Virus record (IMG/VR): IMGVR_UViG_3300032286_000710
Span: 1 to 64,000 of that record
DNA from: a virus
Reading direction: 5' to 3' (one strand)
DNA length: 64,000 bases
Under the pieces are notes generated by a model. The model ran no database searches and was not told the DNA's origin. It saw only the letters and a list, made by a program, of their open reading frames with translations. Positions 7,760 through 55,236 of the stretch are shown here, piece after piece; position 1 is the first letter of the stretch; every line of letters starts with the position of its first letter. The translations under genes and the position numbers were made by a program.

Positions 7760-8096
7760 AAGAAAACAAACAAAAGAGTCAATAACCTCTGTGAGTCCTT
7801 GGGATTTGTCTGGCAGTCCAGAGGATATTTGTAAAGAATTGAGAACAACTCAAGACGCTTATCTGAAAGATCGAAATGATGTTATTGAATCATATTGGTC
7901 TTGGGAAAGTACTCCTTATAGTGATCATGGATCATTTGAACTGGTCATTACTAGACTAGAAAACGATAAAGAGTATAATGCTAGAGTTAAAGAGTTAATG
8001 AAAATTAAGGAAAAGAAGAAGGCCGATAAACAAAAGCAAGATGAATATGAACTACAGGAATATTTGAAACTAAAAAATAAATTTGATAAGGAATAA
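7743..8096 (+). CDS. hypothetical protein, coiled-coil C-terminus
   Basis: RLENDKEY...ELQEYLKLKNKF pattern common in phage ORFs. Confidence 0.7.
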   Translation: MMKKIKRKQTKESITSVSPWDLSGSPEDICKELRTTQDAYLKDRNDVIESYWSWESTPYSDHGSFELVITRLENDKEYNARVKELMKIKEKKKADKQKQDEYELQEYLKLKNKFDKE

Positions 8097-8097
8097 T

Positions 8098-8262
8098 ATG
8101 AACTGGGAATGTAATCGTTGTGGCTATAGAGTTCAACCTGTTAAAGAGGTCGAACCTGATGGAATGGCTTGGCCTGCTGGTCGGGCTTGCTCTAGATGTC
8201 TGGGCGAAATGGTATATCGCCCAATTTATAAAGGTTTGGAGGTTTATCTTAAAATGTATTAA
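8098..8262 (+). CDS. Zn-ribbon small protein (54 aa, not in ORF track)
   Basis: AAGGA RBS; CNRC...CSRC. Confidence 0.6.
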   Translation: MNWECNRCGYRVQPVKEVEPDGMAWPAGRACSRCLGEMVYRPIYKGLEVYLKMY

Positions 8263-8340
8263 ACAATATCGGATTTAGGTAAAAAAAGTGGATGGAACGC
8301 TAGAGTATTTCAGTGGGAAGATTCTGATGAAGTAAGGCGT

Positions 8341-8508
8341 ATGCTTCCAAATCCACAGGATCATTCAAAATGGTACTATGTAGATTTTTACATGACGAAT
8401 GATTATACTAACGGCACTCGTATAGAAGGAACAAAAGAAGATCTACAAAGAATAGTAGACATGTTAAATATTGCAATTTATCAAATGCCTGTTGATATTG
8501 AAAAGTAA
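8341..8508 (+). CDS. hypothetical protein; frame open upstream to 8263
   Basis: 55-aa ORF filling the gap before 8525. Confidence 0.45.
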   Translation: MLPNPQDHSKWYYVDFYMTNDYTNGTRIEGTKEDLQRIVDMLNIAIYQMPVDIEK

Positions 8509-8524
8509 CTAAAGGAGAATAAAC

Positions 8525-8767
8525 ATGAATAGTTTTTGGAAAGGTTTCTGTAACTTATTTGGTTGTTTTAGTCCTAAAACGCTAGACGAAAGCATGGAGG
8601 ATTTATATTCACGAATGGGATGGGGACAATATCACAATCCTTGTGAATCTTATAATACTGCTGTTGATATTAACAGAGCATTAGAAGAGCAAACATTTTC
8701 TAATATGATTAAAGATCCATCAAGACCAAGAATTAATCAGTGCTATAATAGACAAAGATACAAATGA
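8525..8767 (+). CDS. hypothetical protein
   Basis: AAGGAG RBS. Confidence 0.7.
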   Translation: MNSFWKGFCNLFGCFSPKTLDESMEDLYSRMGWGQYHNPCESYNTAVDINRALEEQTFSNMIKDPSRPRINQCYNRQRYK

Positions 8768-19605: not shown

Positions 19606-21744
19606 ATGAAACTTCACGCTAGTACGAACGTTATTGAGAAATCTGGTCAGTTTGAAGAGTCCAAGTTCAGCATTGAAGCATCGTCTAAGGCATTCTTTAT
19701 CCTTTCTGACGGTCTGTATTCTAACAAGATTCTCGCGGTTGTTCGTGAGCTTTCTACCAATGCCTATGACTCTCAAGTAGAGGCTGGCAAGTCGAACGTT
19801 CCTTTTGACGTTCATATCCCTACTGCTATTTCGCCCGTATTCTCTATTCGTGACTACGGCACTAGCATGGATCATGAAAACTGTATGCAACTCTATACTA
19901 CGTATTTCCGTAGCACCCGAAACAATAGCAATGATGCTGTTGGTTGTCTTGGTCTGGGCAGCAAGGCTCCCTTTGCATATTCTGATAGCTTTACCGTTGA
20001 GGCTTATCTTAATGGTACTCGTAGGCTTTATACTGCCTATAAGGACGAGAGTGGCAATCCTGTCTTCTCTTTGATGGACGAGTCTGATACCAGCGAACAG
20101 AATGGTATCAAGGTTTCTATCAACGTGAATGATCATGATATCAACCGATTTCAGTATGAATCGCACCATGTTTATGAACACTTCAAGGTAAAGCCAAACT
20201 TTGTGGCTTATAAGCCTTCATTCCGTAGCATTGATAAGGTTCTGGCTGGAACCAACTGGTACTTTGATGACAATGCTAGAGAGAATGTTATTGTGATGGG
20301 TCAGATCTCATATCCAATTGACGTTAACCAGCTTACTGCTAATGGTGATAAGTCTTTTCAGCGTCATCGTGAATTCATTGAGTATTCCAACGGACTGAGA
20401 ATCTTTGTGAATATTGGAGATGTTGACATTACTCCTAGTCGTGAGTCTCTTTCATATAGTCGAGACACTAAGAAAAATATTCTTAGCATGATTGATAACA
20501 TCATTAACGAGATTGCTGTTAAGATTGAAGAGCAAATTGCTAGCCAGCCTTCTTTGTTCAAGGCTCGTATGAAGTATGTTCAGATTAGCAATCAGTGTTC
20601 TTCTATCAATACTGCCGTTCAGTCTCTTCAAAAGTCTATCACTTGGAATGATATGAAGCTTTTTGATAGCGTTGCTGGAGAGTATATCAATGCCAAAGAT
20701 AGTGGCATTAACTTGATGGAAAAGTCCCAGTATCGTTCTAAGGTCGATATTAAGTACGGTGTTGAGCGTATTGTATTTAACACGCACACTAAGTTTTTTA
20801 TTGATAACCTTACTAGGGGTGGAGTTAGCCGAATTCGTCAGTATATGAAGGAGAACGGCGGCTCTCAGGCTTACTATGTTTACAAGCTTAAGGAAAGTGA
20901 GACTGTTGACAACTGCCGTTTGTATGGTATTATGGGTGATGCCGGTCAGGAAGATGTTGTCTTGACTTCAACTCTTGATAAGGTTAATTACAATCGTTCT
21001 TCTAGTTATACCGCTGGAAATTCTGTTCCTATCGTGCAGGCAAAGGTTTTCAATGAAGAAACTGGAAAGTTTGAAGAGTGCAGTATGAGCGTTAAGTATG
21101 AGAATGCACATTATTTCAAGGAGTCTAAGGATACTGTTGACCTTAAATACTCTGAGATTACTGTCTATTATCTGGAACGTATGCTTGAATATGCACACAA
21201 GAATTATGCAGATAAGGTTGGTGATGCTACGTTTTATATCGTAAAGCCTTCTGTCATTAAGAATAGGAAGCTTAATGAGCGTGATAATTGGCATGATGCT
21301 ACGGTTCTTATTAGCAACATCTTTAATGAGGCAGTCAATACTCATAAGAAACAGATTATTGAATGTCAGAAGAGGTATAATCTTTCTGCTCATCGTAATG
21401 AGCGTTGGAAGGATTGTATTATGATGACAAATATTGATAATGAACTCAAGAGGATTGTGCGTGAACATGATGCTCACGCAAAGGAACTCAATGCTATTCG
21501 TGAAGATATGGGTCATATTTATGAGGCTTCGCGTAAGTTATCTGGTGTTGAGTCCATTAATTTTTCTGGAGTTAAAATGGATGAGACTAAATTTTCAGCT
21601 AAGTTTGATGAAGAGATTAAGAAGTATCCTATGCTTCGACTTCTTTCCAATGTTTGGTCAGATCAAGATAGGAAACTTGTTGCAGATTATATTGACACTA
21701 TTAACGTCGGTATTAATGCAACGAATGTTTTGAGCCAACTGTGA
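19606..21744 (+). CDS. rIIA: rIIA-like protein (N-terminal GHKL/HSP90-like ATPase)
   Basis: LYSNKILAVVRELSTNAYD, DYG and GCLGLGSK motifs; paired with an rIIB-like gene. Confidence 0.85.
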   Translation: MKLHASTNVIEKSGQFEESKFSIEASSKAFFILSDGLYSNKILAVVRELSTNAYDSQVEAGKSNVPFDVHIPTAISPVFSIRDYGTSMDHENCMQLYTTYFRSTRNNSNDAVGCLGLGSKAPFAYSDSFTVEAYLNGTRRLYTAYKDESGNPVFSLMDESDTSEQNGIKVSINVNDHDINRFQYESHHVYEHFKVKPNFVAYKPSFRSIDKVLAGTNWYFDDNARENVIVMGQISYPIDVNQLTANGDKSFQRHREFIEYSNGLRIFVNIGDVDITPSRESLSYSRDTKKNILSMIDNIINEIAVKIEEQIASQPSLFKARMKYVQISNQCSSINTAVQSLQKSITWNDMKLFDSVAGEYINAKDSGINLMEKSQYRSKVDIKYGVERIVFNTHTKFFIDNLTRGGVSRIRQYMKENGGSQAYYVYKLKESETVDNCRLYGIMGDAGQEDVVLTSTLDKVNYNRSSSYTAGNSVPIVQAKVFNEETGKFEECSMSVKYENAHYFKESKDTVDLKYSEITVYYLERMLEYAHKNYADKVGDATFYIVKPSVIKNRKLNERDNWHDATVLISNIFNEAVNTHKKQIIECQKRYNLSAHRNERWKDCIMMTNIDNELKRIVREHDAHAKELNAIREDMGHIYEASRKLSGVESINFSGVKMDETKFSAKFDEEIKKYPMLRLLSNVWSDQDRKLVADYIDTINVGINATNVLSQL

Positions 21745-21773
21745 CGCTATAATAGTTTAAAGGAGACACACAA

Positions 21774-22643
21774 ATGAAATACATTATTGCAAATGACGGT
21801 ACTGTTACTGCGGTTGTTAGTGGTCAGGCATACTGCTTCGGCAAGTCCCACCCTAACTATAATAAGTTGATTAATCATCTTAAGAATAACAATGTCGAAC
21901 ACTTTGAGGCTTCTTACGATATCATTTCGCATGTCAATGCTTACTGCGATGGATATGTAAATTGTCAGGATGGTGGTTTGAGTTGGGATGGAATTAAGAT
22001 GCCCGATATGTTTACTGGAACAATCCTTGATATGATTAAGCAAGGTTTTCCTTTTGAGCCTATGTTGAACTTCCTTGATAATCTTAGTCAGAATCCATCT
22101 GATCATGCTGTTATTGAGTTGTTCGACTTTATGGAAAACAAGAACATGCCTATCACTTATGATGGTTGTTTCTTGTCCTATAAGGCTGTACGCGAAGACT
22201 ACAAGGATATTTATTCTGGCACTTTTGACAATCGTGTTGGTTCTGTTTGCGAAGTTCCTCGCAATAAAGTAGATAGCAATCGTGATAACGGTTGTGGTAA
22301 GGGTCTACATGTTGGTGCTATTGATTATGCTAAGAGTTATGGTGGCATTGATATTGACAACGATAACGATGGTGGTGGCAATCGTCTAATGATTTGCAAG
22401 GTTAATCCACGCGATGTTGTTAGCGTACCAAACGATTCTAAGTTTCAAAAGCTGCGCACTTGTCGATATGAGGTTGTATCTGAGTTTGATAGCATTTTTG
22501 ATAAGGTCGTTCATATGACCGGCGATGATATTGAGCATATTAATCGTAAGAAGCGTAACCGTGATTGGGTTGTTGAGGTTACTGCAAAGATGGATAGACT
22601 TAATAGAGTTCTTTCCAAGCGTAGGCAGGCTGTTAGTGTTTGA
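21774..22643 (+). CDS. rIIB: rIIB-like protein
   Basis: DGCFLSYK; CGKGLHVG; KVNPRDVVSVP; KLRTCRYEV. Confidence 0.88.
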   Translation: MKYIIANDGTVTAVVSGQAYCFGKSHPNYNKLINHLKNNNVEHFEASYDIISHVNAYCDGYVNCQDGGLSWDGIKMPDMFTGTILDMIKQGFPFEPMLNFLDNLSQNPSDHAVIELFDFMENKNMPITYDGCFLSYKAVREDYKDIYSGTFDNRVGSVCEVPRNKVDSNRDNGCGKGLHVGAIDYAKSYGGIDIDNDNDGGGNRLMICKVNPRDVVSVPNDSKFQKLRTCRYEVVSEFDSIFDKVVHMTGDDIEHINRKKRNRDWVVEVTAKMDRLNRVLSKRRQAVSV

Positions 22644-28505: not shown

Positions 28506-28961
28506 ATGTCTAAAAAAGTAGGATGGCAAAAATATGAAGATTATATTGAAAAACAATTATCGTTTCCCATACTGCAAAATATAATACAGAATATGATTCC
28601 AGAATCAGAAGAAGATATTTTAGGTGAAGAAGACGATGACGATGATGAAGACGAATCATATGAAGATGAAGATAATAAAAAAGATATGATGTCGGCCGTT
28701 TTGCATAAGATGTTGCCACTCACTCCGCAGGTAATAGATGATATATCTATGTTAGCCAATTTTGACTGCTGGATTGGTCACACAAACTTCGATATTACAC
28801 CGGCTATAAAAAATAAACTTAATAAAATGCCCGGTATTGAAATACTAAAAATCTTTAGTCGTTATAGATTTTTTGTTGGTATAGGACAGATGTTTGATTT
28901 TCAGAGTATAAGATTTGATATTGAACAAGAACTTATAAAAGGAGAATTTGAAGATGAGTAA
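28506..28961 (+). CDS. hypothetical protein with poly-acidic tract
   Basis: AGGAG RBS; EEDDDDDEDE tract; WIGHTNFDIT. Confidence 0.8.
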   Translation: MSKKVGWQKYEDYIEKQLSFPILQNIIQNMIPESEEDILGEEDDDDDEDESYEDEDNKKDMMSAVLHKMLPLTPQVIDDISMLANFDCWIGHTNFDITPAIKNKLNKMPGIEILKIFSRYRFFVGIGQMFDFQSIRFDIEQELIKGEFEDE

Positions 28962-29427
28962 TTGCATAGATGATAAGATACAGGTTGCCCTTAAGGATGA
29001 AAACATTGTTAAGATTATGAATCAAGCTTCTAAAAGATTTAGAAATCAATTAGATGCCGACTCTATAAGAACGTGCCAGTTAAATGCTTTATGGAAAACA
29101 TTTGTTAACTATAATCCAGAAAAGGGAGCTAAATTTACTACTTATTTATATAAAGGTGTGTTTATTGAGTGCATGAAAGAGATTAAATTTTCTAATAAAA
29201 ATAAGTCATTTGGTATGTTGCACCACAATATAGCATCTAAAACAGATCCATTTTTTAGTATTGATCTGATGGACGAGTTCAAGAATTCAGAAGATAGGGA
29301 TTTGATTGAGGATAGACTTAGCAATATGACCATAGCAGAAATCTCTGAAAAACGTGGGAAAAACAGAGAAAGCATTAGGCGTAAAATCCACAAGCTTGCA
29401 GATAACATAAAGGATAAATTCTGCTAA
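28954..29427 (+). CDS. sigma-70-family (ECF-like) RNA polymerase sigma factor
   Basis: Region 2 ALWKTFVNYNPEKGAKFTTYLY; region 4 HTH MTIAEISEKRGKNRESIRR. Confidence 0.8.
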   Translation: MSNCIDDKIQVALKDENIVKIMNQASKRFRNQLDADSIRTCQLNALWKTFVNYNPEKGAKFTTYLYKGVFIECMKEIKFSNKNKSFGMLHHNIASKTDPFFSIDLMDEFKNSEDRDLIEDRLSNMTIAEISEKRGKNRESIRRKIHKLADNIKDKFC

Positions 29428-29512: not shown

Positions 29513-30151
29513 ATGGCATCCCAAAAAGCCAACACAAATTTTTCAGTCAAAAATAACGGCGGAAGTGTTATTAATGCTGGAGCTACAGATTCTGGCGTTC
29601 TTTCAGATTTATCTCTAATCAAAAATCTAGGAAGCGGACTACAAGCTTACGGAACCTCAGTTTTTTCAGATACCCCGACTGCACCATTTAATTTTAATGA
29701 TCCTCGCGGGGTTATTAAGGCTAGAAGTGTTAATCCGTTTGCATATACTCCACCGGCTGGTAGCGGATATTTATTAATTGCTGCTGGTGATAATGCTAGC
29801 ACAATTGGCGGTTCTGGAACTACACTACTCAACATCCCCGGCGGTGCTACAGAAGCTGTTGTAAATAAGAACCTAAAGACTACTCAGCTTGGTTCATATG
29901 CTACCAGAAAATTTGATGTTCTTGCAGTTCCATCCAGCGGTAATTCTCCCGGTTTGACCAGAGGTACAGGTGCTGGTACTGCTGTGACTTATAGATCTAC
30001 TAGCGGTAATCTGTATCCAGCAGTTGATGATGCTGCAAGTCTAACTAGAGCAGTTCCCGGTGAACTTACTTATAGATTTGGGGCAGCTTTACCAACTCGT
30101 AATGTTGCCTACAAGGCTAGGGATGCAGCAGAATCTGGCATTAATCTTTAA
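29513..30151 (+). CDS. putative virion structural protein
   Basis: AAGGAG RBS; G/S/A/T-rich; followed by a terminator. Confidence 0.6.
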   Translation: MASQKANTNFSVKNNGGSVINAGATDSGVLSDLSLIKNLGSGLQAYGTSVFSDTPTAPFNFNDPRGVIKARSVNPFAYTPPAGSGYLLIAAGDNASTIGGSGTTLLNIPGGATEAVVNKNLKTTQLGSYATRKFDVLAVPSSGNSPGLTRGTGAGTAVTYRSTSGNLYPAVDDAASLTRAVPGELTYRFGAALPTRNVAYKARDAAESGINL

Positions 30152-30159
30152 TAATTAGC

Positions 30160-30210
30160 AGGATATAAGTGCTTTTTGAGAAATCTTAAGGCACTTTATC
30201 CTTCTTTTTC
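30160..30210 (+). terminator. intrinsic terminator-like hairpin
   Basis: AGGATA-AAGTGC...GCACTT-TATCCT followed by a T-rich tract. Confidence 0.6.
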
Positions 30211-30224
30211 CTACGGAGGCAATT

Positions 30225-30818
30225 ATGCTAGACATAAAAAGTCCAGAACATATCACCTTTATATTTAGTATTGTTGGTGGTCTAGGAACATTTTTTAGCT
30301 TAATGTGGGTCAAGGTAATAAAACCAGCAATTAAATTTGTTAAAGGTCAGGAAGAAGTTGGTAAATCGTTAGAAACAATAAAAAAAGAACTAACAACTAA
30401 TGGTGGAAATAGCCTAAAAGACGCTATTGTAGATTTAAGATCCACCGTCAACAGGATGGAAAAAAGACAAAAGGTTATAGAACAAAGAACAAAGGCCGCA
30501 CTTCACTATAATGATGCGGCATTATTTGAAACAGATGATCATGGTAGACTAACTTGGACCAATAATAATTTTTATGAATTTACACAAGAAGTTATTAATA
30601 GTGTAGAAGGTTATGATTGGCTCAACTATATAAAAGAAGAAGATAGGGAAGATCTTTTTGATGAATTGAAATCTTGCTTAAAAATGAATAGAAAATTAGT
30701 CAAAACAGTACAAACAGTAGACGATAAGACAGTCAAAATGATGGGATTTCCATACAGGATAAATGATAAGGAGCATGGGGGATTTTTAATAAGCATTTCT
30801 CAACTCAAGGAGACATAA
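30225..30818 (+). CDS. membrane-anchored PAS-domain protein (TM, coiled coil, PAS)
   Basis: N-terminal TM; NGGNSLKDAI; LFETDDHGRLTWTN...EGYDWLNYIKEEDR PAS signature. Confidence 0.8.
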   Translation: MLDIKSPEHITFIFSIVGGLGTFFSLMWVKVIKPAIKFVKGQEEVGKSLETIKKELTTNGGNSLKDAIVDLRSTVNRMEKRQKVIEQRTKAALHYNDAALFETDDHGRLTWTNNNFYEFTQEVINSVEGYDWLNYIKEEDREDLFDELKSCLKMNRKLVKTVQTVDDKTVKMMGFPYRINDKEHGGFLISISQLKET

Positions 30819-30819
30819 A

Positions 30820-31041
30820 ATGTCAGAAGTAAAAATGGGTTCACCTGCATTCTCACTAAACACAACTGATCTTATTTCAGTTGGTAAAAACGCAGCATTA
30901 GTTGGTTTAGCAGCACTATTAACATATCTTGGCGAAAATCTAACTAAACTTGATCTTGGCAGTATGACAGCACTTATTGTGCCTGTTACTGTTGTAGTAA
31001 TCAATACCGTAGTCAAGTGGGCAAAGGATAACTCAAAGTGA
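30820..31041 (+). CDS. putative holin (two TM)
   Basis: 73 aa, two hydrophobic helices, charged C-terminus; upstream of a hydrolase. Confidence 0.6.
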   Translation: MSEVKMGSPAFSLNTTDLISVGKNAALVGLAALLTYLGENLTKLDLGSMTALIVPVTVVVINTVVKWAKDNSK

Positions 31042-31958
31042 TGTTTAAGACACCTAAAGATTTATTAAAAGCCTATAAAGATGGTTTTGTAGGATCATAC
31101 TGCGACCCAAAAGAGTTGGACAAACTCTTAGGAGAACTACCACATCCACTATTCGGGGTGGCAGCACATGACTTATATGGTAGTGGAAAAGGAAAAGTAT
31201 CCTTACCATTTAAGTCTCTCTTAAAGTTTGATCCCTCTTTTGGTCCATCGGAAAGACAAGTCCAAGGAGATTGTGTTTCACATGCAACGCGAAACTCTGT
31301 AGATGTTACACGTAGTTGTGAAATTATCAATGGCGAACGTGAGGAATTTGTAGCCCGTGGTGCTACAGAGGGTATTTACGGTTCACGCGGACATGGCGGT
31401 GAAGGCATGACTTGTGCTGGTGCTGCTAGATTCGTCCATGAAAATGGCGGATTATTACTCCGTCAAAAGTACGGAGATTATGACCTTTCAGAGTATAGTG
31501 CTATTGGTGGCAAATGGGGTCGCACTGGCGTTCCAGAAGAATTAATAAAGGTAGCCAAAAAACACCAAGTTAAAACCATAAGTTTAATCAACACCATAGA
31601 TCAAGCCAGAGATGCTATAGCCAATGGTTATTCTATTAGTGTATGTAGTAATTCTGGATTTAGTTCTAGAAGAGATAAGAATGGTATTGCTGCCCGATCT
31701 GGATCATGGGGTCACGCCATGGCTTGGATCGGAATGGATGATACCCACGAAATTTATAATGAAACACTATTCTTAGTCCAAAACTCTTGGGGAGTTTGGA
31801 ATAATGGTGAGAAGCGTCTAGATCAACCCGATGGAAGTTTCTGGATAAGAGAACGAGATGCAGCAGAAATGTTAGCACAGAATGGTTCTTGGGTATTTAG
31901 TGATGTAGACGGTTTTCCTCCAAGAAAAGTAATTTGGACATTAAAAGATCAATTTTAA
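31038..31958 (+). CDS. papain-like cysteine peptidase (C1A-like)
   Basis: QVQGDCVSH (Gln/Cys), WGHAM (His), VQNSWG (Asn); GSFWI. Confidence 0.88.
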   Translation: MMFKTPKDLLKAYKDGFVGSYCDPKELDKLLGELPHPLFGVAAHDLYGSGKGKVSLPFKSLLKFDPSFGPSERQVQGDCVSHATRNSVDVTRSCEIINGEREEFVARGATEGIYGSRGHGGEGMTCAGAARFVHENGGLLLRQKYGDYDLSEYSAIGGKWGRTGVPEELIKVAKKHQVKTISLINTIDQARDAIANGYSISVCSNSGFSSRRDKNGIAARSGSWGHAMAWIGMDDTHEIYNETLFLVQNSWGVWNNGEKRLDQPDGSFWIRERDAAEMLAQNGSWVFSDVDGFPPRKVIWTLKDQF

Positions 31959-31975
31959 CATATAAGGGGTAACAA

Positions 31976-32224
31976 ATGGCAATCTCAACAACTGATGTAA
32001 TAACCAACGTGGTTCCCGGTAGAGAAACAATTCAGAACGGTTCAGCCGTTGTATATTGCTTTTTCGGAAAGCCAGTAAGTGGAAGCGGCAGTTATCAAGC
32101 TTTAATTAGTCCATTTGAATATGAAAAGTCTTATTCTTACACTGCTAACGAAAATAGACTAAAGAGTAGATTTGATGATGTTACTTATTACACTGTTGGA
32201 AATTCTGGCGTAATTGGAGTCTAA
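31976..32224 (+). CDS. hypothetical protein, possibly structural
   Basis: AAGGGG RBS; in the late module. Confidence 0.6.
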   Translation: MAISTTDVITNVVPGRETIQNGSAVVYCFFGKPVSGSGSYQALISPFEYEKSYSYTANENRLKSRFDDVTYYTVGNSGVIGV

Positions 32225-32226
32225 GT

Positions 32227-33414
32227 ATGGCACTTACTAGAATAAATCAATTACCATCTGGAGCAGCAGTTACTGATGATGATATATTTATTGTTATGGA
32301 TGACCCGTCTGGAATTGCAGTAACAAAAAGAGTTTCTGCCAGCGTACTAAGAAGTTCAATTCTAAATCAAGCCGCACAATTACAGTTAAGACAGGGTACA
32401 AATGTAGAAAGGGGCTTGATTACCCCAGCCAGCGGAGAACCAATTTGGGTTACTGATCAAAAGAAGCTTTATATTGGGGATGGTACTACAGTAGGAGGAC
32501 AATTTATTGGGCCATATATCGAAACAGGTACTGAATTAGTTGGTAGAGATACAACTAATAGTGCTATTGCTGGAGGACAAAAAAATCAAATTATTTCTCC
32601 TAACTACGGTGTTACAATAGGTGCTGGATACTACAACGTTGCTAAACCTGGAACTCAATTTAGTACTATTGGTGGAGGATATTATAACGAAGCTTCAACT
32701 GGATCTATTAAAGGAACTATTTCTGGAGGCGAATGGAATACAGTAGTTGGAAGTCATTCAACAATTGGTGGCGGTGGAGGAAATACTACTAATGGACTTC
32801 TTTCAACAATTGGTGGCGGTGGTAGTTTGGCTGGTGAGAGTAGGAATATTGGAAATATTGCTAATGGATACGCTTCAACAATTTGCGGAGGCGTTGCCAA
32901 TAATTCATTGGGTGATTATTCAATAGTAATTGGTGGATATGGAGGAAAGTCAACTTTATATGGACAAGTTTCTCATGCTGCTGGAAATTTTGCTAATCAG
33001 GGAGATGCTCAACATTCTATTTTAATAGCAAGACGAGCAACATCAGACGCTACAGCAAATACAGTATTAACACTAGATGGTGGCACACCGGGGTCAACCA
33101 ATAGATTAACAATAGCCGCCTCAACAGCGTGGTCATTCCTAATAAAAATTAGTGCATATAATACTACTGATAATGCGGCAGCTTCTTGGTTTTTAAAGGG
33201 TGGTATAAGAAGAAATGCTGCTAATGGAACAGCATTAATAGGATCAGTTACTTCAGAAACATGGACAGAAGCTGCTATGTCAACTGCTACCGTTAGTGCT
33301 GTTGCCGATGACACCAACGAGGCTTTAGAAATAAGAGTAACTGGTATAGCTAGTAAATCTATAAGATGGGTAGCTGTAGTTGATATTACTCAAGTAAGCT
33401 TTGGATCACCATAA
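32227..33414 (+). CDS. tail fibre / adhesin-like protein
   Basis: LQLRQGT...GEPIWVTDQKKLYIGDG (Mtd-N-like) followed by STIGGG beta-repeat units. Confidence 0.8.
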   Translation: MALTRINQLPSGAAVTDDDIFIVMDDPSGIAVTKRVSASVLRSSILNQAAQLQLRQGTNVERGLITPASGEPIWVTDQKKLYIGDGTTVGGQFIGPYIETGTELVGRDTTNSAIAGGQKNQIISPNYGVTIGAGYYNVAKPGTQFSTIGGGYYNEASTGSIKGTISGGEWNTVVGSHSTIGGGGGNTTNGLLSTIGGGGSLAGESRNIGNIANGYASTICGGVANNSLGDYSIVIGGYGGKSTLYGQVSHAAGNFANQGDAQHSILIARRATSDATANTVLTLDGGTPGSTNRLTIAASTAWSFLIKISAYNTTDNAAASWFLKGGIRRNAANGTALIGSVTSETWTEAAMSTATVSAVADDTNEALEIRVTGIASKSIRWVAVVDITQVSFGSP

Positions 33415-34664
33415 TGGATAATGCTAAAGGCATTCCACTTAAATGTGGTTCTATATCTGGAGTTAATGCTCCAACATATATTTTTAAAAAACCTACATTC
33501 GGTGGAAGTAAAATACAATTATCAGTACAACCATTTACTAGAATAACATCATCGTCTTCTGCTGGAAATATTACTTCTTATGATGCTATTTTTTTAAGAA
33601 GTATTTCTGCCTCCACGATTACTGATTATAATACATTCATAAATAAAGATGAGGATGTACAATCGGTATCTGTATATAGTCTTAATAGTGGAATAATTTT
33701 AGGATCAAATTTTAACTTGGCGTCTGGAGTTTCTGGCGGAATCACATCTTTAGTAGCAACCGGAATTGGTATATCAAACTGTTTTAGTCTAGCTAGCGTT
33801 ACTGTTGATCAACTTGGACCATCAACGGTAGATTCATTTATATCATACTCTGGCGGAACTCTTGCTAAAAACTGCTATGATACAATTAATAATAGAATAA
33901 CTGGAAAAAATCCAACAATATCAAAACCAATTTTTTCAACTTTAAATCATACATTGTCAACCTATGTTAGAAATACTGGTTGTTGGGCATATGATTTAGA
34001 CTTAACCTGTATTAGTCCGTGGAATAGTGCTGGCGGTATTACTATGGGTGGCACACTCATAAGTCCATGTCATATAGCATTTGCTAATCATTATCAAATA
34101 AGTAATGGATCTAAGATTAGATATGTAACATCAAATAACGTTACTGTAGAAAAAACAGTTATTGATCAAATTAATGCCGTTGACGATATACAAATAGGTA
34201 TACTTGATAGCGACGTTCCATCATCTATTTCTTTTGCAAAAATATTACCAAACAACTGGTCAACTTATTTACCAAACTTATATAGAAATACTCAATATAA
34301 TACTAATTCTGCTGGATTACCCATAATGACTTTAGATTATGATAAAAAAGCCTCAATAATGGAACTCCACTATATAGCAAACAATGCTGGAGCTTTTGTC
34401 AGGGGGCCATCACCAAACTCAAGTTTTTATCCATTCCTAGAATCGGTAGTTGGTGGAGATAGCGGCAGTCCATCATTTTTAATTATCAATAATCAATTAG
34501 TTTTAATTCTGACTTGGACTAGTGTTATTGCTGGGCCATTTTATGGTGGAATTTATGTTAGTTCAATTAATACTGCCATGAATACCCTGTGGACAAGAAA
34601 TGGGCGATCTGGTGGTTCATATGCTGTAACCCTAATTGATTTAACTGGATTCACTCCGTTCTAA
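33414..34664 (+). CDS. putative virion protein with C-terminal trypsin-like protease domain
   Basis: GGTLISPCHIAFANHY, DDIQIG and GGDSGSP triad motifs. Confidence 0.7.
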   Translation: MDNAKGIPLKCGSISGVNAPTYIFKKPTFGGSKIQLSVQPFTRITSSSSAGNITSYDAIFLRSISASTITDYNTFINKDEDVQSVSVYSLNSGIILGSNFNLASGVSGGITSLVATGIGISNCFSLASVTVDQLGPSTVDSFISYSGGTLAKNCYDTINNRITGKNPTISKPIFSTLNHTLSTYVRNTGCWAYDLDLTCISPWNSAGGITMGGTLISPCHIAFANHYQISNGSKIRYVTSNNVTVEKTVIDQINAVDDIQIGILDSDVPSSISFAKILPNNWSTYLPNLYRNTQYNTNSAGLPIMTLDYDKKASIMELHYIANNAGAFVRGPSPNSSFYPFLESVVGGDSGSPSFLIINNQLVLILTWTSVIAGPFYGGIYVSSINTAMNTLWTRNGRSGGSYAVTLIDLTGFTPF

Positions 34665-34665
34665 C

Positions 34666-34694
34666 TTGCAATACTGCTAGGATCGGACTATAAT
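34666..34694 (+). promoter_or_regulatory. sigma70-type promoter, probably giving a leaderless mRNA
   Basis: TTGCAA-17 nt-TATAAT; ATG 5 nt downstream with no SD. Confidence 0.65.
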
Positions 34695-34699
34695 AGTTT

Positions 34700-35500
34700 A
34701 TGACTAGAAATTTGCACTATATAAGCGGATTACCAAGAAGCGGAAGCACCCTACTTTGTAATATTCTGTCTCAAAATCCAGACTTTTTTGTTAGCAAGGC
34801 TACTAGTGGTTGCCACGATATTCTATTCAGTATTAGAAATCAGTGGGATAGATTGCTAGAGCATAAAGCAGAAGGAGTTGACTACAATCAACTGAAAAGG
34901 GTTTTACAGTCAATATTAAATAGTTACCATACTACTGATAAAGATATTATATTTGATAAAGGTAGGGGTTGGTTAAGTTTGATAGAAACAGTCGAATTTA
35001 TAACCGGGAAAACTCCTAAAATTATTGTTCCGGTAAGAAATATTTCGGCAATACTCAGTAGTTTTGAAAAATTGTGGAGAAAAAATACTGGTTTTTCTCA
35101 GTGGAATATTGAGCAAGAAGACTATTTCAAAGCTCAAACTGTTGATGGTAGATGCGAAATATGGGCAAATCAAAATCAACCTGTTGGAATGGCATATAAC
35201 AGGGTTAGGGATGCTATAAGCAGGGGCTACAAAGATAGCCTATTCTTTTTAGAATTTGAAGATTTAACATCTCGCCCGTATCAGACCATGAGAAAGGTGT
35301 ATGATTATTTAGAACTACCATATTATGAGCATAATTTTAATCATGTGGAACAGGTCACAAGGGAAGATGACGAAAACGTACATAGAATTCCCGGTCTTCA
35401 TTCTATACGCTCAGTAGTTGAACCCGTAAAAAATGACTCTATAAATATTTTAGGAGAATTTTTGACTAAAAAATACTCTAACTTAGAAATATGGAAATAA
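34700..35500 (+). CDS. sulfotransferase-family protein
   Basis: SGLPRSGSTLL PAPS-binding loop; VRNI..ILSSFEKL; FEDL. Confidence 0.88.
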   Translation: MTRNLHYISGLPRSGSTLLCNILSQNPDFFVSKATSGCHDILFSIRNQWDRLLEHKAEGVDYNQLKRVLQSILNSYHTTDKDIIFDKGRGWLSLIETVEFITGKTPKIIVPVRNISAILSSFEKLWRKNTGFSQWNIEQEDYFKAQTVDGRCEIWANQNQPVGMAYNRVRDAISRGYKDSLFFLEFEDLTSRPYQTMRKVYDYLELPYYEHNFNHVEQVTREDDENVHRIPGLHSIRSVVEPVKNDSINILGEFLTKKYSNLEIWK

Positions 35501-35505
35501 TTATT

Positions 35506-35811
35506 ATGAAAAAATATATACTTTTATTGTTAATGCTATCTGGGTGTTCAAATAATATGTTTTGTGTCAATCCAGAAGATATAACAAATATGTACTCTTC
35601 TTACGTAACGGAGTGGCAAGAGAAGTGTAAGACAGCTTTTGACAATGCAGAAAAAGAAGTTTTTAAGGTAGATCCAAAACCGCAGCCGGTTGTGGATACT
35701 GATCCAGACCCAGTAAAATGCGTTTGCAAAGGCACAGGAATAATTGTTCAAGGAGATGGTCATAAAACAATATGTCCATTTCATGCAAAGACCACTAATT
35801 TAAAGAGGTAA
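35506..35811 (+). CDS. lipoprotein with C-terminal Zn-finger-like motif
   Basis: MKK..LLLLMLSG|C lipobox; CVCKGTG...CPFH. Confidence 0.75.
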   Translation: MKKYILLLLMLSGCSNNMFCVNPEDITNMYSSYVTEWQEKCKTAFDNAEKEVFKVDPKPQPVVDTDPDPVKCVCKGTGIIVQGDGHKTICPFHAKTTNLKR

Positions 35812-35815
35812 TAAG

Positions 35816-36091
35816 ATGGAATCGTGGAATATTTTGTTAATTGGAATTGCTTTACTTATATTAGCAACTAACTTTGTAGATATTCCATACTGGGTATCTA
35901 GACTATTTGCTAAGTCTAAGGTCAAAGTTGTAGAGAACAAAGAAGAAGGATTCTTGGAAATAGTTAGTTTATGGTATCAACTAAAAAATAAATGCGATGA
36001 ATACCATTTAACCGTAGCGTCTGATAAGTTAGACGAAGTATTTCCACTACTAAACAAAGTAATTGAGGACAACGATGGAAAAGTTTCTTAA
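35816..36091 (+). CDS. membrane protein
   Basis: GAGG RBS; N-terminal TM. Confidence 0.75.
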   Translation: MESWNILLIGIALLILATNFVDIPYWVSRLFAKSKVKVVENKEEGFLEIVSLWYQLKNKCDEYHLTVASDKLDEVFPLLNKVIEDNDGKVS

Positions 36092-36542
36092 GGTTAAAAA
36101 TTTAATAGCACTAATTTTACTTGGCATAGCTTTATACCAACCAATATTAAATATAGTTCCAATCTCACCAAAACCAGATGTTGCTATTCTAAATATTGAT
36201 CGCCCTAGCGATGAAGTTATAGAATTAGTTAAACCAGTATCATCATTAATAATTGATCCAACAGATAGAGCAAAAGTTGCTATATATAGTCAAGAGTTTG
36301 CAAATAGAGTAAAGACCTATGACGCTCAGTTACAACAAGTAAATGATGTGCTAGCATTATCTGCAAGCGGATTCTTTGAAGGAACCATGAATGATAAGTA
36401 TAAAGATTTAGATGTGGCTATTGTAGATTTAATTACTTCTGCCGTTGGTGGTGATGAAAATCATAAACTAACAGATGAAGAAAAAAATAAAATCTCAGAT
36501 AGATTTATGGGCTTGGCTTGGTCACTAATACAGAAGAATTAA
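36075..36542 (+). CDS. membrane-anchored or secreted protein
   Basis: GAGG RBS; N-terminal hydrophobic helix. Confidence 0.75.
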   Translation: MEKFLKVKNLIALILLGIALYQPILNIVPISPKPDVAILNIDRPSDEVIELVKPVSSLIIDPTDRAKVAIYSQEFANRVKTYDAQLQQVNDVLALSASGFFEGTMNDKYKDLDVAIVDLITSAVGGDENHKLTDEEKNKISDRFMGLAWSLIQKN

Positions 36543-36543
36543 T

Positions 36544-37182
36544 ATGCCAATACCAATTTCACAAATTAAACAAATTGTTGATTTCATCTTTTCGAAGAAT
36601 GGTTATGACATTAAAAATCTAAATATAAGTTTCCCCCAACCATTAGATATTAAAGTTATAAAAGACCCTTCTGAAAATATTATTCTGTCATTCACTGAAT
36701 CTCTCCCAAAAGTAACTTGGAAAAAATACATCAAGTTAAGTGCTTATGTGCAGGGCTTGACTTTAGGTAAAGAGGGTGGTACACTCAAGCTAAAGTACCT
36801 ACCAGATATCAAGTTTTCCTATGATGAAAACTCAGAAACTCTGTTTGGTAGTTCTTTCGACACCAGCGACATAGAAGCTCAGATTGACGCTGAATATGCA
36901 GACTTAGAAAGAAACTTTTTAGCCAAAAAATGTTTGCAATACGGCAACGAATGGGCTACAATAGCTAGCCAAAGCGGAACAAACTTTACGGAGTGTGACA
37001 CATATAGTAAAAGGCAACTAAAAAGAGATTGCAAAGACTTCGTAATGTCCAATGTAAAACAAGATCCAGAAGTAATGTATGGATCTGTTATACTAACATT
37101 TTTGCTAATCTATGTTGTTTTGCCCGTTATATTAAAGTTTATACTTGAAAGATTGTTTAGAAAACTTTTTAACGAATATTGA
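36544..37182 (+). CDS. hypothetical protein with C-terminal TM
   Basis: VILTFLLIYVVLPVILKF helix. Confidence 0.75.
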   Translation: MPIPISQIKQIVDFIFSKNGYDIKNLNISFPQPLDIKVIKDPSENIILSFTESLPKVTWKKYIKLSAYVQGLTLGKEGGTLKLKYLPDIKFSYDENSETLFGSSFDTSDIEAQIDAEYADLERNFLAKKCLQYGNEWATIASQSGTNFTECDTYSKRQLKRDCKDFVMSNVKQDPEVMYGSVILTFLLIYVVLPVILKFILERLFRKLFNEY

Positions 37183-53610: not shown

Positions 53611-55236
53611 ATGAATTGGTTCCCGTTGAAGAATTTTACTCATTATAGTTTGCTCAAGGGGTATTCCAAACCAGAAGAATTAGCAAAGAAATGCAAGGAT
53701 AATGGATATCCAGCATGTGGCATTTGTGATTATAAAACATTATCTGGTGCAGTTGCCTTCTATAAAGCTTGCAAGAAGCAAGGCATAAAGCCAATCATTG
53801 GATGCTCGTTTGATTTTGCTACACTTTTTGCCAAGAACAAAGATGGGTGGTACGAGTTAATTGAGATGGTTTCATCACTAGATGAAAATGGTAAGTTACC
53901 AGAGCAATATGACAATACAAATATCAGTAAAAATTTGATTAGTGTCTATAATGCTCCTACTGAATTAATGCCTATTAGTTATTATACAAATAGGGAAGAT
54001 GCCAAACTTCACAGAATATTATTATGTTCTGACATGAAGACTACGCTACCAAGAATAAAGAAGTGCATTAGGCCAGATAACAAGGGTGGTCTAAATATAG
54101 ATTCAAAATATCCAGAAGAGCATATGGATAAATTAGTATATTTTATGCAAGATTCTTTTTACGTCAAAGACAAGGATGAATCTAAGGGGTTAGACTCGTC
54201 TAAACTAAAAGAGATTTATGACCAGTGCGAAGACTATGATATTCTTAGCAAGCCAATGCTACCTAAATTTGAATGTCCAAAAGGGGCATCAGAAGAAGAT
54301 TATCTCAAAGAACTATGCCGTATTGGCTGGAAGAAAATACTAATAGATCAAAATAAGGTATCAAAAGAAGAAGATAAGCAGAAGTATTTGAGTAGATTCA
54401 AGGAAGAGTTTGATGTTATTAAAGATGCTAATCTATTCGGATATTTTCTTATTGTTCGTGATATTATAAAGCACGTTAATGATATGGGTTGGTTATCTGG
54501 TCCCGGTAGAGGATCTGCCGCAGGGTGTTTAATCTCATATTTAATTGGTATCACAAAGATTGACCCAATAGAGTTTGACCTTCTATTTGCACGATTTTAT
54601 AACGCTGGAAGAAATAGTGCTGATCATATATCTCTACCAGATATTGATATAGACGTTCCCGGTACTAAACGTGATGAAATTATCGCATATCTAAAGGATA
54701 AATATGGTCATAGTCGAGTCAGTCAAATGTTAACGTTTGGCAGACTTCAAGGCAAAAGTGCTATCAAAGAAGTCTTGCGTGTTAATGAGGCTTGTTCATT
54801 CTCTGAAATGAATGCTATAAGTAATTGTATTCCAGATGAAGCAAAGATTTCAGACCAGTTAGCAGAAATGGATGATGAAGATCGTTCTATTATTAAATGG
54901 GCATTAATCAACAACTCTGAGGATCTAAGAGATTTCTGTAGAATATCAGAAGATGGTAAACTTGAGGGTGAATACGCAGAATATTTTGAACAAGCTATTC
55001 AGATAGAGGGAACATTCAAAACTCAGGGAAAACACGCTGCCGGTGTAGTAATTTCAGCAGAGCCACTTCAAAAGGTATGCCCAATGGTAAAACAAAAAGG
55101 TTCATCAGAAAAGGTGGCTGGACTTGAAATGGCAGACTTAGAGGCATTAGGCCACGTAAAGTTTGACGTTCTAGGAATTAATTTGCTAGATAAAATTATG
55201 AAGATTGAAGAACTAACAGGAGTATCTAATGGCTAA
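53611..55236 (+). CDS. dnaE: DNA polymerase III alpha, N-terminal part (reduced PHP plus palm)
   Basis: GPGRGSAAG; LPDIDID; HAAGVVI; KFDVLG near the C-terminus. Confidence 0.93.
   Translation: MNWFPLKNFTHYSLLKGYSKPEELAKKCKDNGYPACGICDYKTLSGAVAFYKACKKQGIKPIIGCSFDFATLFAKNKDGWYELIEMVSSLDENGKLPEQYDNTNISKNLISVYNAPTELMPISYYTNREDAKLHRILLCSDMKTTLPRIKKCIRPDNKGGLNIDSKYPEEHMDKLVYFMQDSFYVKDKDESKGLDSSKLKEIYDQCEDYDILSKPMLPKFECPKGASEEDYLKELCRIGWKKILIDQNKVSKEEDKQKYLSRFKEEFDVIKDANLFGYFLIVRDIIKHVNDMGWLSGPGRGSAAGCLISYLIGITKIDPIEFDLLFARFYNAGRNSADHISLPDIDIDVPGTKRDEIIAYLKDKYGHSRVSQMLTFGRLQGKSAIKEVLRVNEACSFSEMNAISNCIPDEAKISDQLAEMDDEDRSIIKWALINNSEDLRDFCRISEDGKLEGEYAEYFEQAIQIEGTFKTQGKHAAGVVISAEPLQKVCPMVKQKGSSEKVAGLEMADLEALGHVKFDVLGINLLDKIMKIEELTGVSNG

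Follow-up and report, generated by a model that had tools for sequence, protein, structure and literature searches.

The conserved membrane module described here, counted as eight genes and built around a papain-type protease, is best read as a lysis module based on a protease and carried by an uncultured tailed phage from an aquatic habitat, a reading to which we assign a probability of about 0.55. Phages that carry it probably lyse their hosts by a route not previously described, and a literature search found no published account of the module. The module lies in the window, i.e., the 64,000-nucleotide stretch of DNA that was analyzed, which belongs to an uncultured freshwater tailed-phage genome of 166.6 kb (~167 kb). 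The original prediction had seen a three-gene, sensor-gated lysis cassette consisting of a membrane-anchored PAS protein (g1), a holin-like protein (g2) and a papain-like protease (g3). The synteny of g1, g2 and g3 bears this out in part, but as judged from sequence comparison the conserved core is g3 with two exported partners, w159 and w106, while g1 and g2 are lineage-specific additions.

Organization and conservation of the locus

All genes of the module, its upstream context and the insert described below are encoded on the plus strand. The three open reading frames g1 (30225..30818), g2 (30820..31041) and g3 (31038..31958) are coupled exactly as originally described, with a 1-nt gap followed by a 4-nt overlap. 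The ribosome-binding sites of g1 and g2 are strong (GGAGG/AGGAG), and g3 starts either at a GTG with a 4-nt GTGA overlap on g2 or at an ATG at 31041 with a 1-nt overlap. Upstream, and outside the module proper, lies a sigma-factor-like gene of 159 aa (28948..29427) that matches the RNA polymerase sigma factor family phrog_351 (E 3.5e-7). It is followed by a gene at a conserved position for a 212-aa G/S/T/A-rich protein (29513..30151), which has no Pfam, PHROG or NCBIfam match. Reading of the sequence 3' of this gene reveals a hairpin (AAGTGC...GCACTT) and then a T-rich run at ~30168-30212. A candidate "late promoter" motif upstream of the block, GTGTATAW, occurs 9 times against 6.8 expected, and 22 of 100 shuffles reach 9; since the motif is not enriched, it was dropped as a basis for defining the operon. 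The phage also encodes homologues of rIIA and rIIB.

The order sigma-like gene, 212-aa gene, g1, g2, g3 is found in all related viral loci that include the flank (33/33), with the sigma-like gene upstream in each of them. Among 73 loci found via g1, g2 is adjacent in 71 and g3 lies within 4 kb in 67, and this preserved g1-g2-g3 order indicates that the arrangement goes beyond chance. Distant g1 relatives are found without g2 or g3: those at 30-32% identity adjoin clamp-loader genes. One sub-lineage has the ribonucleotide reductase (RNR) gene directly after g1-g2, without g3. A g3 profile search of six records with exceptional g1 loci found none, five of these records being at most 19% complete and the search having no positive control, and no g3 was found in one 72%-complete genome with an exceptional g1 locus. 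Conversely, most lineages with the g3 core lack g1 and g2.

Searches of 50,697 GenBank phage records (tblastn) with g3, g1 and two distant g3 relatives gave no match, no g3-family member was found in any cultured phage, and the TerL of this phage is at most 27% identical to that of any isolate.

A papain-fold peptidase as candidate lytic effector

The candidate lytic effector g3 is a 306-aa, signal-less cysteine peptidase of the papain (C1) fold. Its catalytic set Q74/C79/H226/N249 occurs in that order, and the motif QNSWG is present. Across 53 relatives with 34-88% identity there is no variation at Q74, C79, H226 or W251 and almost none at N249 or S250. The structural model (pLDDT 94) has the two lobes of the papain fold and gives 254 Foldseek matches at E<=1e-3, including xylellain at E 4.6e-11. 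Comparison with xylellain gives a VIA Z of 21.5 and an rmsd of 2.9 over 232 residues, compared to a VIA Z of 17-20 for cathepsins and papain and 17.7 for Cwp84. The invariance and the model together confirm the predicted papain Gln-Cys-His-Asn set in a protein with no signal peptide. Xylellain and C1 zymogens rank highest among the structural matches; zymogen structures align from residue 5 of the g3 model, while mature enzymes align from residues ~31-51. In sequence, g3 stays below the PF00112 gathering cut-off (18.6 vs 20.7 bits, E 0.0021), which places it in a distant, separate C1 subfamily, and some of its relatives carry PF00112.

The g3 family is large and almost wholly viral. In 33 of 150 g3 representatives, and also in a close relative, inteins interrupt the protein precisely at C79 and H226, which points to a strongly conserved active site and to a gene that matters to the phage. 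While g3 itself has no N-terminal hydrophobic segment, export signal or SAR domain, other family members do carry targeting features. These include Tat motifs (P0258 and P0356), a lipobox (P0339) and, in about 15 of the 150 representatives, a strongly hydrophobic N-terminal TM anchor combined with a w159 domain. The presence of Tat signals, lipoboxes and membrane anchors in many members suggests that the enzyme acts outside the cytoplasm.

Exported partners and the variable insert

Immediately downstream of g3, w82 (31976..32224) encodes a small soluble protein, and in relatives it adjoins g3 or the lipoprotein gene. Next comes a variable insert (32227..35500), which does not belong to the module and separates g3 from its w106/w159 partners in this window. 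The insert holds a tail-fibre-like gene (32227-33414; Mtd_N, E 1.2e-7), a gene of 416 aa (33414-34664), a sigma-70-like promoter (34666-34694) and a sulfotransferase gene (34700-35500), the latter with a Sulfotransfer_3 match above the cut-off (E 1.2e-15). Its length varies between loci, and it is missing altogether in three of them (L006-L008).

The module resumes with w106 (35491..35811), a Cys-rich lipoprotein with the lipobox LSGC, a Pro-rich linker and a CxCxGxG...GDGH...CP motif; the lipoboxes of its relatives read FVGC, LAGC, LCGC and FAGC. The w106 family adjoins g3 homologues in 13 diverse loci, and the w106 motif is fused to the C-terminus in 5 of the 150 g3 representatives. In two marine relatives (L047 and L050) thioredoxin is fused to w106, and in L038 a thioredoxin gene lies next to g3. 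The next gene, w91 (35816..36091), encodes an N-terminal TM segment and a small Cys-containing C-terminal domain and is a member of the module in low-GC lineages. It is followed by w159 (36063..36542), with an N-terminal membrane anchor and a ~130-aa extracytoplasmic domain. This is the most constant partner of g3, being adjacent or fused in ~20 of 22 diverse loci and forming the N-terminal domain in 15 of the 150 g3 representatives (E 1e-37 to 3e-19). The last conserved gene is w212 (36544..37182), which has a C-terminal membrane anchor and precedes the gene of the RNR large subunit, beginning at 37209. Neither w82, w106, w91, w159 nor w212 has a Pfam, PHROG or NCBIfam match.

These neighbours bear on whether g3 could instead be a cytoplasmic enzyme that matures the adjacent fibre-like or other virion proteins or serves host takeover or anti-defence, with membrane neighbours that are functionally unrelated to it. 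The missing signal peptide and the adjoining fibre-like genes in this window would fit such a role, and papain-like proteases process proteins in many viruses, from which C1-like proteins are known. However, the fibre genes belong to an insert that some relatives do without, and the Tat signals, lipoboxes, TM anchors and fusions to exported partners in the family argue against a cytoplasmic enzyme. The phage also has a separate head maturation protease (136373-137017), which is distinct from g3. We therefore regard a cytoplasmic role as highly improbable.

The membrane proteins g1 and g2

The 197-aa protein encoded by g1 is a predicted N-out/C-in single-pass membrane protein with a long helix and a C-terminal PAS fold. 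Its hydrophobic segment comprises residues 10-28, and across 30 relatives the C-terminal flank of this segment carries 2.9 K/R compared to 0.7 on the N-terminal side. This excess indicates an N-out/C-in topology, and the PAS domain is thus predicted to face the cytoplasm, in agreement with the original prediction. In the AlphaFold2 model a helix spans residues 7-94, and residues ~96-197 form a five-stranded antiparallel sheet with flanking helices, in the order strand, strand, three helices, three strands, as in PAS folds. The segment ELTTNGGNSLKD, which is invariant in g1 relatives, sits in the long cytoplasmic helix; a suggested likeness of its NxGxSLxD pattern to lysis-cassette proteins could be tied to no family.

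The PAS assignment is supported by structure, as the model gives 232 PAS matches at E<=1e-3 (Foldseek/PDB) and VIA Z values of 12-12.9 over 96-117 residues. In sequence, g1 matches the PAS region of NCBIfam PnpS (E 4e-5) and stays under every curated PAS cut-off (PAS_10, 14.7 vs 22.1; TIGR00229, 15 vs 22.9). Relatives of g1 are annotated as PAS, and PF00989 is found in 31% of its Atlas cluster, which has 1142 members, 99% of them viral. The profile of the g1 N-terminus matches its own lineage only. The chain ends after the PAS domain and g1 is therefore without an output domain.

We consider g1 a candidate holin-like partner or lysis regulator, which raises the question of whether its PAS domain senses anything. 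The module might be a lysis cassette without sensor gating, in which the PAS domain serves oligomerization or as a scaffold, and timing is set via accumulation and membrane potential. Many PAS domains are dimerization modules, and no LOV NCRFL motif or other cofactor signature is visible on reading the g1 sequence. The sequence scores below all PAS model cut-offs also suit this alternative, as do the lineages in which the same protease core does without a PAS protein. In addition, a PAS-less pair of one-TMD and two-TMD proteins has precedent (PMC13056207). On the other hand, the PAS core of g1 is highly conserved: in 30 relatives at 61-88% identity, ~55 positions never vary, and these include both polar and aromatic residues as well as Cys151 of the F-alpha helix. 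Moreover, ~190-aa PAS proteins form several separate viral clusters in the Atlas, which suggests a selected function beyond scaffolding. Weighing both sides, we consider a non-gated cassette a real possibility, though a rather unlikely one.

The second membrane protein, g2, has 73 aa and two hydrophobic helices, with hydropathy peaks at ~18-38 (the weaker) and 44-62 and a charged C-terminus (KWAKDNSK). It is small, has two TMDs and a charged C-terminus and adjoins a candidate lysin gene, which is the layout of class II/pinholin-like holins, and we consider it a candidate class II-type holin on the basis of this sequence layout. The original claim that g2 is a holin is thus sustained for the layout, but no known holin family could be assigned: g2 matches no Pfam, PHROG or NCBIfam family and no described holin family, and its 124 relatives all fall within this viral group. 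The single positive sign is a language-model lead, as the nearest Atlas clusters of g2 are auto-named holin. An assignment to the r1t-type holins (Atlas score 0.87) was rejected, since hhalign against the r1t holin itself gave a probability of 0.1%. Modelling g1 and g2 as a complex (two alignments) gave a score of 0.00 and no verdict, which we count neither for nor against pairing.

Genomic position and search for a conventional endolysin

The positions of g3 in other genomes agree with the original view that the protease occupies the slot of a lysin, as its relatives are found amid small membrane proteins and lipoproteins at positions typical of lysis cassettes. In L037 and L038, the terminase/portal region lies a few kb downstream of g3, which is set amid small TM proteins and a 71-aa Pro-rich lipoprotein. 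In loci from planctomycetes, one of which (L058) is on a 922-kb contig, g3 lies between capsid and head-completion genes; the high-GC g3 relatives are concentrated in Planctomycetota MAGs and this one contig locus. Small two-TM proteins unrelated to g2 accompany g3 in L037 and L048.

The statement that no glycosidase or amidase endolysin is visible could be extended from the window to the whole genome and its relatives. The 166.6-kb genome was searched for sixteen Pfam families with muralytic or peptidoglycan-binding function, and none was detected. Missing from the genome are PF00959, PF01510, PF01464, PF00182, PF05838, PF13539, PF01520, PF01183, PF05257, PF01551 and PF00877. The eight families also searched in 10 relatives, of which 4 are at least 90% complete, are missing from both the genome and these relatives (PF00959, PF01510, PF01464, PF08291, PF01471, PF01476, PF07486 and PF11860). 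Pfam-level six-frame searches of this kind may overlook lysins that have diverged, and GH19, GH108 and PF11860 gave no match in the control genomes. Within this scope, 11 related genomes of 99-167 kb are without a recognizable endolysin. To our knowledge, the lysis route of abundant uncultured aquatic phages is largely unknown.

An enzyme that escaped these searches could carry out lysis, while the protease core (g3, w159, w106 and neighbours) remodels the envelope. Such remodelling could mean that receptors or envelope proteins are destroyed, which would prevent superinfection or release progeny from debris, or that exported or glycosylated proteins of the phage itself are processed. The module adjoins a hypervariable tail-fibre-like region, with glycan-modifying genes nearby, and Cwp84, an S-layer protein processor, is a structural neighbour of g3 (Z 17.7). 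Exported and membrane-anchored forms of the g3 family could also act before lysis. However, g3 itself is without an export signal and is translationally coupled to the two-TM protein g2, which fits release at lysis and not early export. The lack of an alternative lysin in the 11 genomes also argues against this explanation, as do the positions in small phages and prophages, which are those of lysis cassettes. We find envelope remodelling decidedly unlikely as the role of the core and retain the protease-based lysis module as the preferred reading.

Proposed mechanism

Under the lysis reading, g3 would gather in the cytoplasm late in infection in a self-inhibited, zymogen-like state. Such a state is proposed because the N-terminal segment of g3 aligns with C1 pro-regions. 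Meanwhile g2, probably with g1, would build up in the inner membrane until triggering lets g3 reach the periplasm. There, w159 may dock g3, and the Cys-motif lipoprotein w106, with thioredoxin where present, may keep or make the catalytic cysteine of g3 reduced. The enzyme would then cut peptide links of the envelope, which could be peptidoglycan stem peptides, cross-links or envelope proteins. It counts against this reading that proteins are the classical substrates of C1-family enzymes and that g3 carries no peptidoglycan-binding domain. The least supported step concerns the PAS domain of g1, which may set the trigger according to redox, energy state or a ligand, or might serve oligomerization only.

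In its most far-reaching form, the mechanism would be a proteolytic pathway distinct from muralytic endolysis. A holin pair, of which one partner senses a cytoplasmic signal via its PAS domain, would release a zymogen-like C1 protease. Once in the periplasm, this protease would be docked and redox-activated through a membrane anchor and a Cys-motif or thioredoxin lipoprotein, and would then dismantle a protein-rich or disulfide-cross-linked envelope. We regard this complete version as speculative and unlikely.

Comparison with known lysis systems

In lambda (S-R-Rz/Rz1) and phage 21 (S21 with a SAR endolysin), as here, a small two-TMD protein is coupled to a signal-less hydrolase. Canonical holin-endolysin-spanin cassettes also resemble the present block in containing genes for inner-membrane-anchored proteins and lipoproteins, and in lying near terminase or capsid genes, as the block does in small relatives. 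They differ in the enzyme, as g3 is a peptidase of the C1 papain fold rather than a muramidase, amidase, transglycosylase, M15/M23 or CHAP/NlpC enzyme. They also differ in the partners, which here carry a Cys motif or thioredoxin and are without the usual spanin gene layout. The lipobox lipoprotein of a two-component spanin has a counterpart in w106 (LSGC), but an i-spanin gene, whose product has a coiled-coil periplasmic domain, precedes, overlaps or embeds its o-spanin gene, whereas the order here is lipoprotein, w91, w159. Furthermore, w106 and w159 both occur as fusions with the protease in other phages, unlike spanins.

Compared to SAR endolysins, g3 is without an N-terminal signal-anchor-release domain. 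P1 Lyz is a SAR endolysin (lysozyme) with an internal caging cysteine and is activated by disulfide isomerization. The cysteine chemistry of this lysin is controlled in the oxidizing periplasm, and a similar link may be drawn for g3, which has membrane-anchored relatives paired with thioredoxin or Cys-motif proteins. Here, however, the enzyme is a protease, and redox control would fall to a protein that is separate from it or fused to it. For T4 T with the antiholins RI/RIII, a single-pass protein with a globular domain is proposed to link lysis timing to a signal, as for g1. T is N-in with a periplasmic domain, while g1 is predicted to be N-out with a cytoplasmic PAS domain, and the comparison implies no homology; T is not among the 50 matches listed from either structure search.

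With xylellain, procathepsins, propapain and Cwp84 of Clostridioides difficile, g3 shares the fold, the Gln-Cys-His-Asn set and the NSWG motif. The pro-regions of C1A zymogens, with which the N-terminal segment of g3 aligns, block the active-site cleft. In contrast to these enzymes, to which it is 11-17% identical, g3 is phage-encoded, has no signal peptide and has exported partners and an intein-rich family.

A published architectural parallel to g1 and g2 comes from F1 mycobacteriophages, where efficient lysis needs both LysF1a, an r1t-type protein with two TMDs, and LysF1b, which has one TMD and an N-out/C-in topology (PMC13056207). The likeness to g2 and g1 is one of architecture: a ~75-aa two-TMD protein is paired with a one-TMD N-out/C-in protein that has a long, charged cytoplasmic helix, and the genes overlap or abut in the lysis cassette as g1 and g2 abut (PMC13056207). 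Here, however, the gene order is reversed, g1 has an additional C-terminal PAS domain, hosts and lysins are unrelated, and no homology between g2 and r1t holins is detectable. Precedent for a Cys-His lysin is given by papain-superfamily phage peptidases that cut peptidoglycan peptides, i.e., CHAP, NlpC/P60 and the cysteine peptidase domains N4/N5 of mycobacteriophage LysA (PMC3314691). These belong to other families than g3 and are usually fused to cell-wall-binding domains, and CHAP (PF05257) and NlpC/P60 (PF00877) were not detected in this genome.

Implications

The g3 family is a rich new intein host, with insertions at catalytic residues, and its natural fusions predict binding partners that are testable. 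A PAS-bearing holin partner would, if true, link the timing of lysis to a sensor fold of the classical intracellular kind, and we know of no earlier case of a PAS-type sensor fold in this role. If the C1 peptidase is the lysin, it would represent a new enzyme class in phage lysis, together with a requirement for a redox partner, and such enzymes would be of interest for bacteria with unusual, protein-rich envelopes.

The g1-g2-g3 unit

The original prediction described g1 (30225-30818, 197 aa), g2 (30820-31041, 73 aa) and g3 (31038-31958, 306 aa) as a candidate sensor-gated lysis cassette of a PAS protein, a holin-like protein and a papain-like protease. Three tightly coupled ORFs are indeed found at these positions, with a 1-nt gap followed by an overlap of 4 nt (GTGA) or 1 nt (TGATG), and the unit has strong ribosome-binding sites. 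All 33 related IMG/VR loci that extend into the flank keep the order sigma-like gene, 212-aa gene, g1, g2, g3. At 30168-30212, in the interval separating the 212-aa gene from g1, a hairpin (AAGTGC...GCACTT) precedes a T-rich run; judged from the sequence, the two may form a partial terminator, through which the membrane genes would be expressed less strongly than the gene upstream.

The g1 protein has a single hydrophobic segment (residues 10-28). In 30 relatives, the C-terminal flank of this segment is richer in K/R than the N-terminal flank (mean 2.9 vs. 0.7), and therefore the bulk of g1, including the PAS side, is predicted to be cytoplasmic, in line with the earlier use of the positive-inside rule. 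The AlphaFold2 model (30 relatives, mean pLDDT 75) shows a long helix (residues 7-94) and then strands and helices in PAS order. Foldseek against the PDB gave 232 matches at E<=1e-3, with PAS domains throughout among the matches listed, and the structure comparison VIA gave Z up to 12.9 with about 100 residues aligned. The g1 sequence scored under every cut-off of the curated PAS models, and its relatives carry PAS annotation. The predicted PAS domain is thus borne out by the modelled structure, and the protein ends after it, as expected from the proposed lack of an output domain. In the alignment of relatives, the ELTTNGGNSLKD stretch is invariant.

Among the loci found from g1, g2 adjoins in 71 of 73 and g3 lies within 4 kb in 67. 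Relatives at 30-32% identity have neither g2 nor g3 nearby, and no g3 was found in the one 72%-complete record. These distant TM-NGGxSIKD-PAS proteins of 222 aa (L134:3938-4606 and L135:3923-4591) are encoded on other large phage contigs, retain the PAS domain along with the NGGxSIKD motif, and adjoin sliding-clamp and clamp-loader-like genes.

For g2, the proposed small two-TM protein is recovered as two predicted hydrophobic segments, the first weaker and the second strong, with a charged C-terminus. It matched no holin family among the families searched.

The papain-fold peptidase family

The top structural match of the g3 model (pLDDT 94) is xylellain (Foldseek E 4.6e-11; VIA Z 21.5, rmsd 2.9, 232 residues); procathepsins, propapain and further C1 enzymes rank next. 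The Pfam C1 score (18.6) is slightly under the cut-off of 20.7. Q74, C79, H226 and W251 are invariant in 53 relatives with identity down to 34%, and N249 and S250 are nearly so; together with the modelled C1 fold, this supports the papain Q-C-H-N set read from the sequence. C1 zymogens align with the model from residue 5 and mature enzymes from residue 31-51. This difference suggests that g3 may have a built-in pro-segment, which would explain how the protease could wait harmlessly in the cytoplasm.

The family comprises 1524 cluster representatives at E<=1e-3, and the structural Atlas neighbours are 91-96% viral. Twin-arginine motifs start two representatives (P0258 and P0356) and a lipobox is found in a third (P0339), and about 15 of 150 have a strongly hydrophobic N-terminal helix, then a domain of about 150-200 residues, then the protease. 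Many members are therefore predicted to be exported or membrane-tethered.

The g3 family is also unusually intein-rich. In-frame inserts of 130-430 aa with canonical Cys...HN|Cys junctions occur in 33 of the 150 representatives (P0241-P0390); the insertion points lie immediately ahead of the catalytic C79, immediately behind the catalytic H226 and at no fewer than two more sites (near residues 126 and 250). Pfam recognises Intein_splicing and LAGLIDADG domains in P0243 and LAGLIDADG in P0241, and in a close relative of this phage, 83% identical (L029:4657-6699, 680 aa; also L030), an intein of 374 aa sits at QGD|C. The insertions at C79 and H226 argue for strong constraint on the active site and for a gene of importance to the phage.

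Exported partners and module architecture

The extra N-terminal domain of the 15 anchored representatives is homologous to w159 (36063-36542; E 1e-37 to 3e-19), and the w159 family adjoins or is fused to the protease in about 20 of 22 diverse loci. A second partner, w106 (35491-35811), has a lipobox (LSGC), a Pro-rich linker and a CxCxGxG..GDGH..CP motif. This Cys motif is present at the C-terminus of 5 of the 150 representatives, and the w106 family adjoins the protease in 13 of the 22 loci. In two marine loci a thioredoxin with a CGPC site, above Pfam cut-offs, is fused to the w106 protein (L047, 6931-7617; L050, 6499-7143), and in L038 a Tat-signal protease is followed by a thioredoxin-like lipoprotein (8088-8639). 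The w106 of the window has the Cys motif only, without thioredoxin. A lysin under redox control in the periplasm has a precedent in P1 Lyz.

Because many family members are exported or tethered and both partners adjoin or fuse to the protease, g3 is predicted to act outside the cytoplasm, where a protein anchored in the membrane and a redox-linked lipoprotein rich in Cys would work alongside it. A cytoplasmic protease, the alternative for an enzyme that has no signal peptide of its own, is very unlikely in view of this association; the head protease is encoded by a gene separate from g3.

In L006-L008, the genes g1, g2, g3, w82, w106, w91, w159 and w212 are contiguous. In the window (w82, 31976-32224; w91, 35816-36091; w212, 36544-37182) and many other relatives, a variable tail-fibre-like insert splits the module. 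In the window it spans 32227-35500 and holds an Mtd_N tail-fibre-like gene, a 416-aa gene and a sulfotransferase. Among relatives it ranges from 0 to about 5.3 kb and can precede or follow the small gene w82, and the site is a hotspot where host-recognition-like genes are exchanged. The system's core extends beyond g1-g2-g3, the cassette first proposed, and is partly encoded elsewhere in the window.

Evidence for a probable role in lysis

Lysis is the best reading of the module, and we give a protease-based lysis module a probability of roughly 55%. Translational coupling links the signal-less g3 to a small membrane protein with two helices, in the classic holin-lysin arrangement. In the small relatives L037 and L038, terminase and portal genes follow the protease block at a distance of a few kb, and the block is surrounded by several genes for small membrane proteins and one for a Pro-rich lipoprotein of 71 aa; in planctomycete loci including L058, a protease-capsid fusion gene lies on one side of the block and head-completion genes on the other. 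Such sites near terminase or capsid genes are typical of lysis cassettes in lambda-like and P2-like genomes. Unrelated small two-TM proteins are paired with the same protease core in L037 (65 aa) and L048 (62 aa); holins are diverse, and unrelated two-TM partners in other lineages are expected.

The original prediction saw no glycosidase or amidase endolysin in the window, and this now extends to the 166.6-kb genome and ten relatives. Eleven muralytic Pfam families gave no match anywhere in the genome, and eight families, including the wall-binding domains PG_binding_1 and LysM, gave none in the genome or the ten relatives (four of which are at least 90% complete). SLT, M23 and NlpC/P60 were absent from the genome in Pfam searches, and lysozyme, SLT and PG-binding from the genome and all ten relatives; these large tailed phages therefore have no recognisable virion-associated wall-degrading enzyme or endolysin. 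Envelope remodelling would share the predicted extracytoplasmic action of g3, and is improbable when weighed against the lysis-like context and these empty searches.

Possible sensor gating and known systems

For the sensor-gated cassette as a whole, the PAS, TM and papain observations and the lysis-like context stand, but g1 and g2 are limited to this lineage and its marine relatives, and both are missing from the majority of phages that have the protease core. The g1-g2 pair and the g3-w212 block appear to be separable units. In one sub-lineage (L107:3947-7112; also L111-L113), g1-g2 is directly followed by the ribonucleotide reductase (RNR) large-subunit gene, and the g3-to-w212 block is gone from that position. 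Our literature search found no paper linking PAS domains with holins or antiholins. The same lysis module with a PAS domain that has no sensing role is a credible if doubtful alternative, and it overlaps with the protease-based lysis reading.

The closest published analogue of the g1-g2 pair is LysF1a/LysF1b of F1 mycobacteriophages, in which efficient lysis requires both a two-TMD protein and a one-TMD N-out/C-in partner whose cytoplasmic helix is charged (PMC13056207); g1 resembles a LysF1b-type partner that gained a PAS domain. The lysis module would work like a holin-endolysin-accessory cassette, yet every component falls outside the known families. Unlike known endolysins, g3 is a distant C1 peptidase and not a muralytic domain, although the papain superfamily offers lysin precedents in the CHAP, NlpC/P60 and LysA N4/N5 domains (PMC3314691). 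Compared with known holin families g2 is an orphan, and the anchor and lipoprotein pair lacks the gene architecture of spanins and, in other phages, occurs fused to the enzyme.

Lineage and hosts

The full record (166,604 bp, direct terminal repeats) is rated complete, and the window is its first 64 kb, with about 34% G+C and nearly all genes on the plus strand. It encodes rIIA and rIIB homologues, a class I RNR, a DnaB-type helicase, a UvsX-like recombinase and a split polymerase. The rIIA (E 1e-126) and rIIB (E 1e-64) homologues (19606-22643) occur in a phage whose replication and packaging genes are otherwise not T4-like, and the polymerase, which matches phrog_405 (53611-57470), is divided between ORFs of 541 and 533 aa that flank a 226-aa ORF. 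A candidate promoter motif, GTGTATAW, was not enriched in 12131-51182 (9 matches vs. 6.8 expected; 9 or more in 22 of 100 shuffles). Structural genes lie on the minus strand at about 70-142 kb, including TerL (134388-136376) and the head maturation protease (136373-137017). TerL is at most 27% identical to any sequenced isolate, and the lineage is therefore uncultured; no homologue of g1 or g3 was found in the 50,697 GenBank phage records searched.

Low-GC loci with g3 relatives occur on MAG contigs labelled Flavobacteriales, SAR202 and Promethearchaeota (one of 152 kb, the others 5-23 kb), which may be phage DNA assigned to the wrong bin. High-GC relatives of the protease core (L058; L052-L056, L059, L060) are concentrated in Planctomycetota MAGs. 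Of the genome and MAG loci with g3 relatives, 7 of 15 are from Planctomycetota, including L058 on a 922-kb Thermoguttaceae contig. This planctomycete occurrence fits, rather than demonstrates, a role of the protease against protein-rich envelopes.
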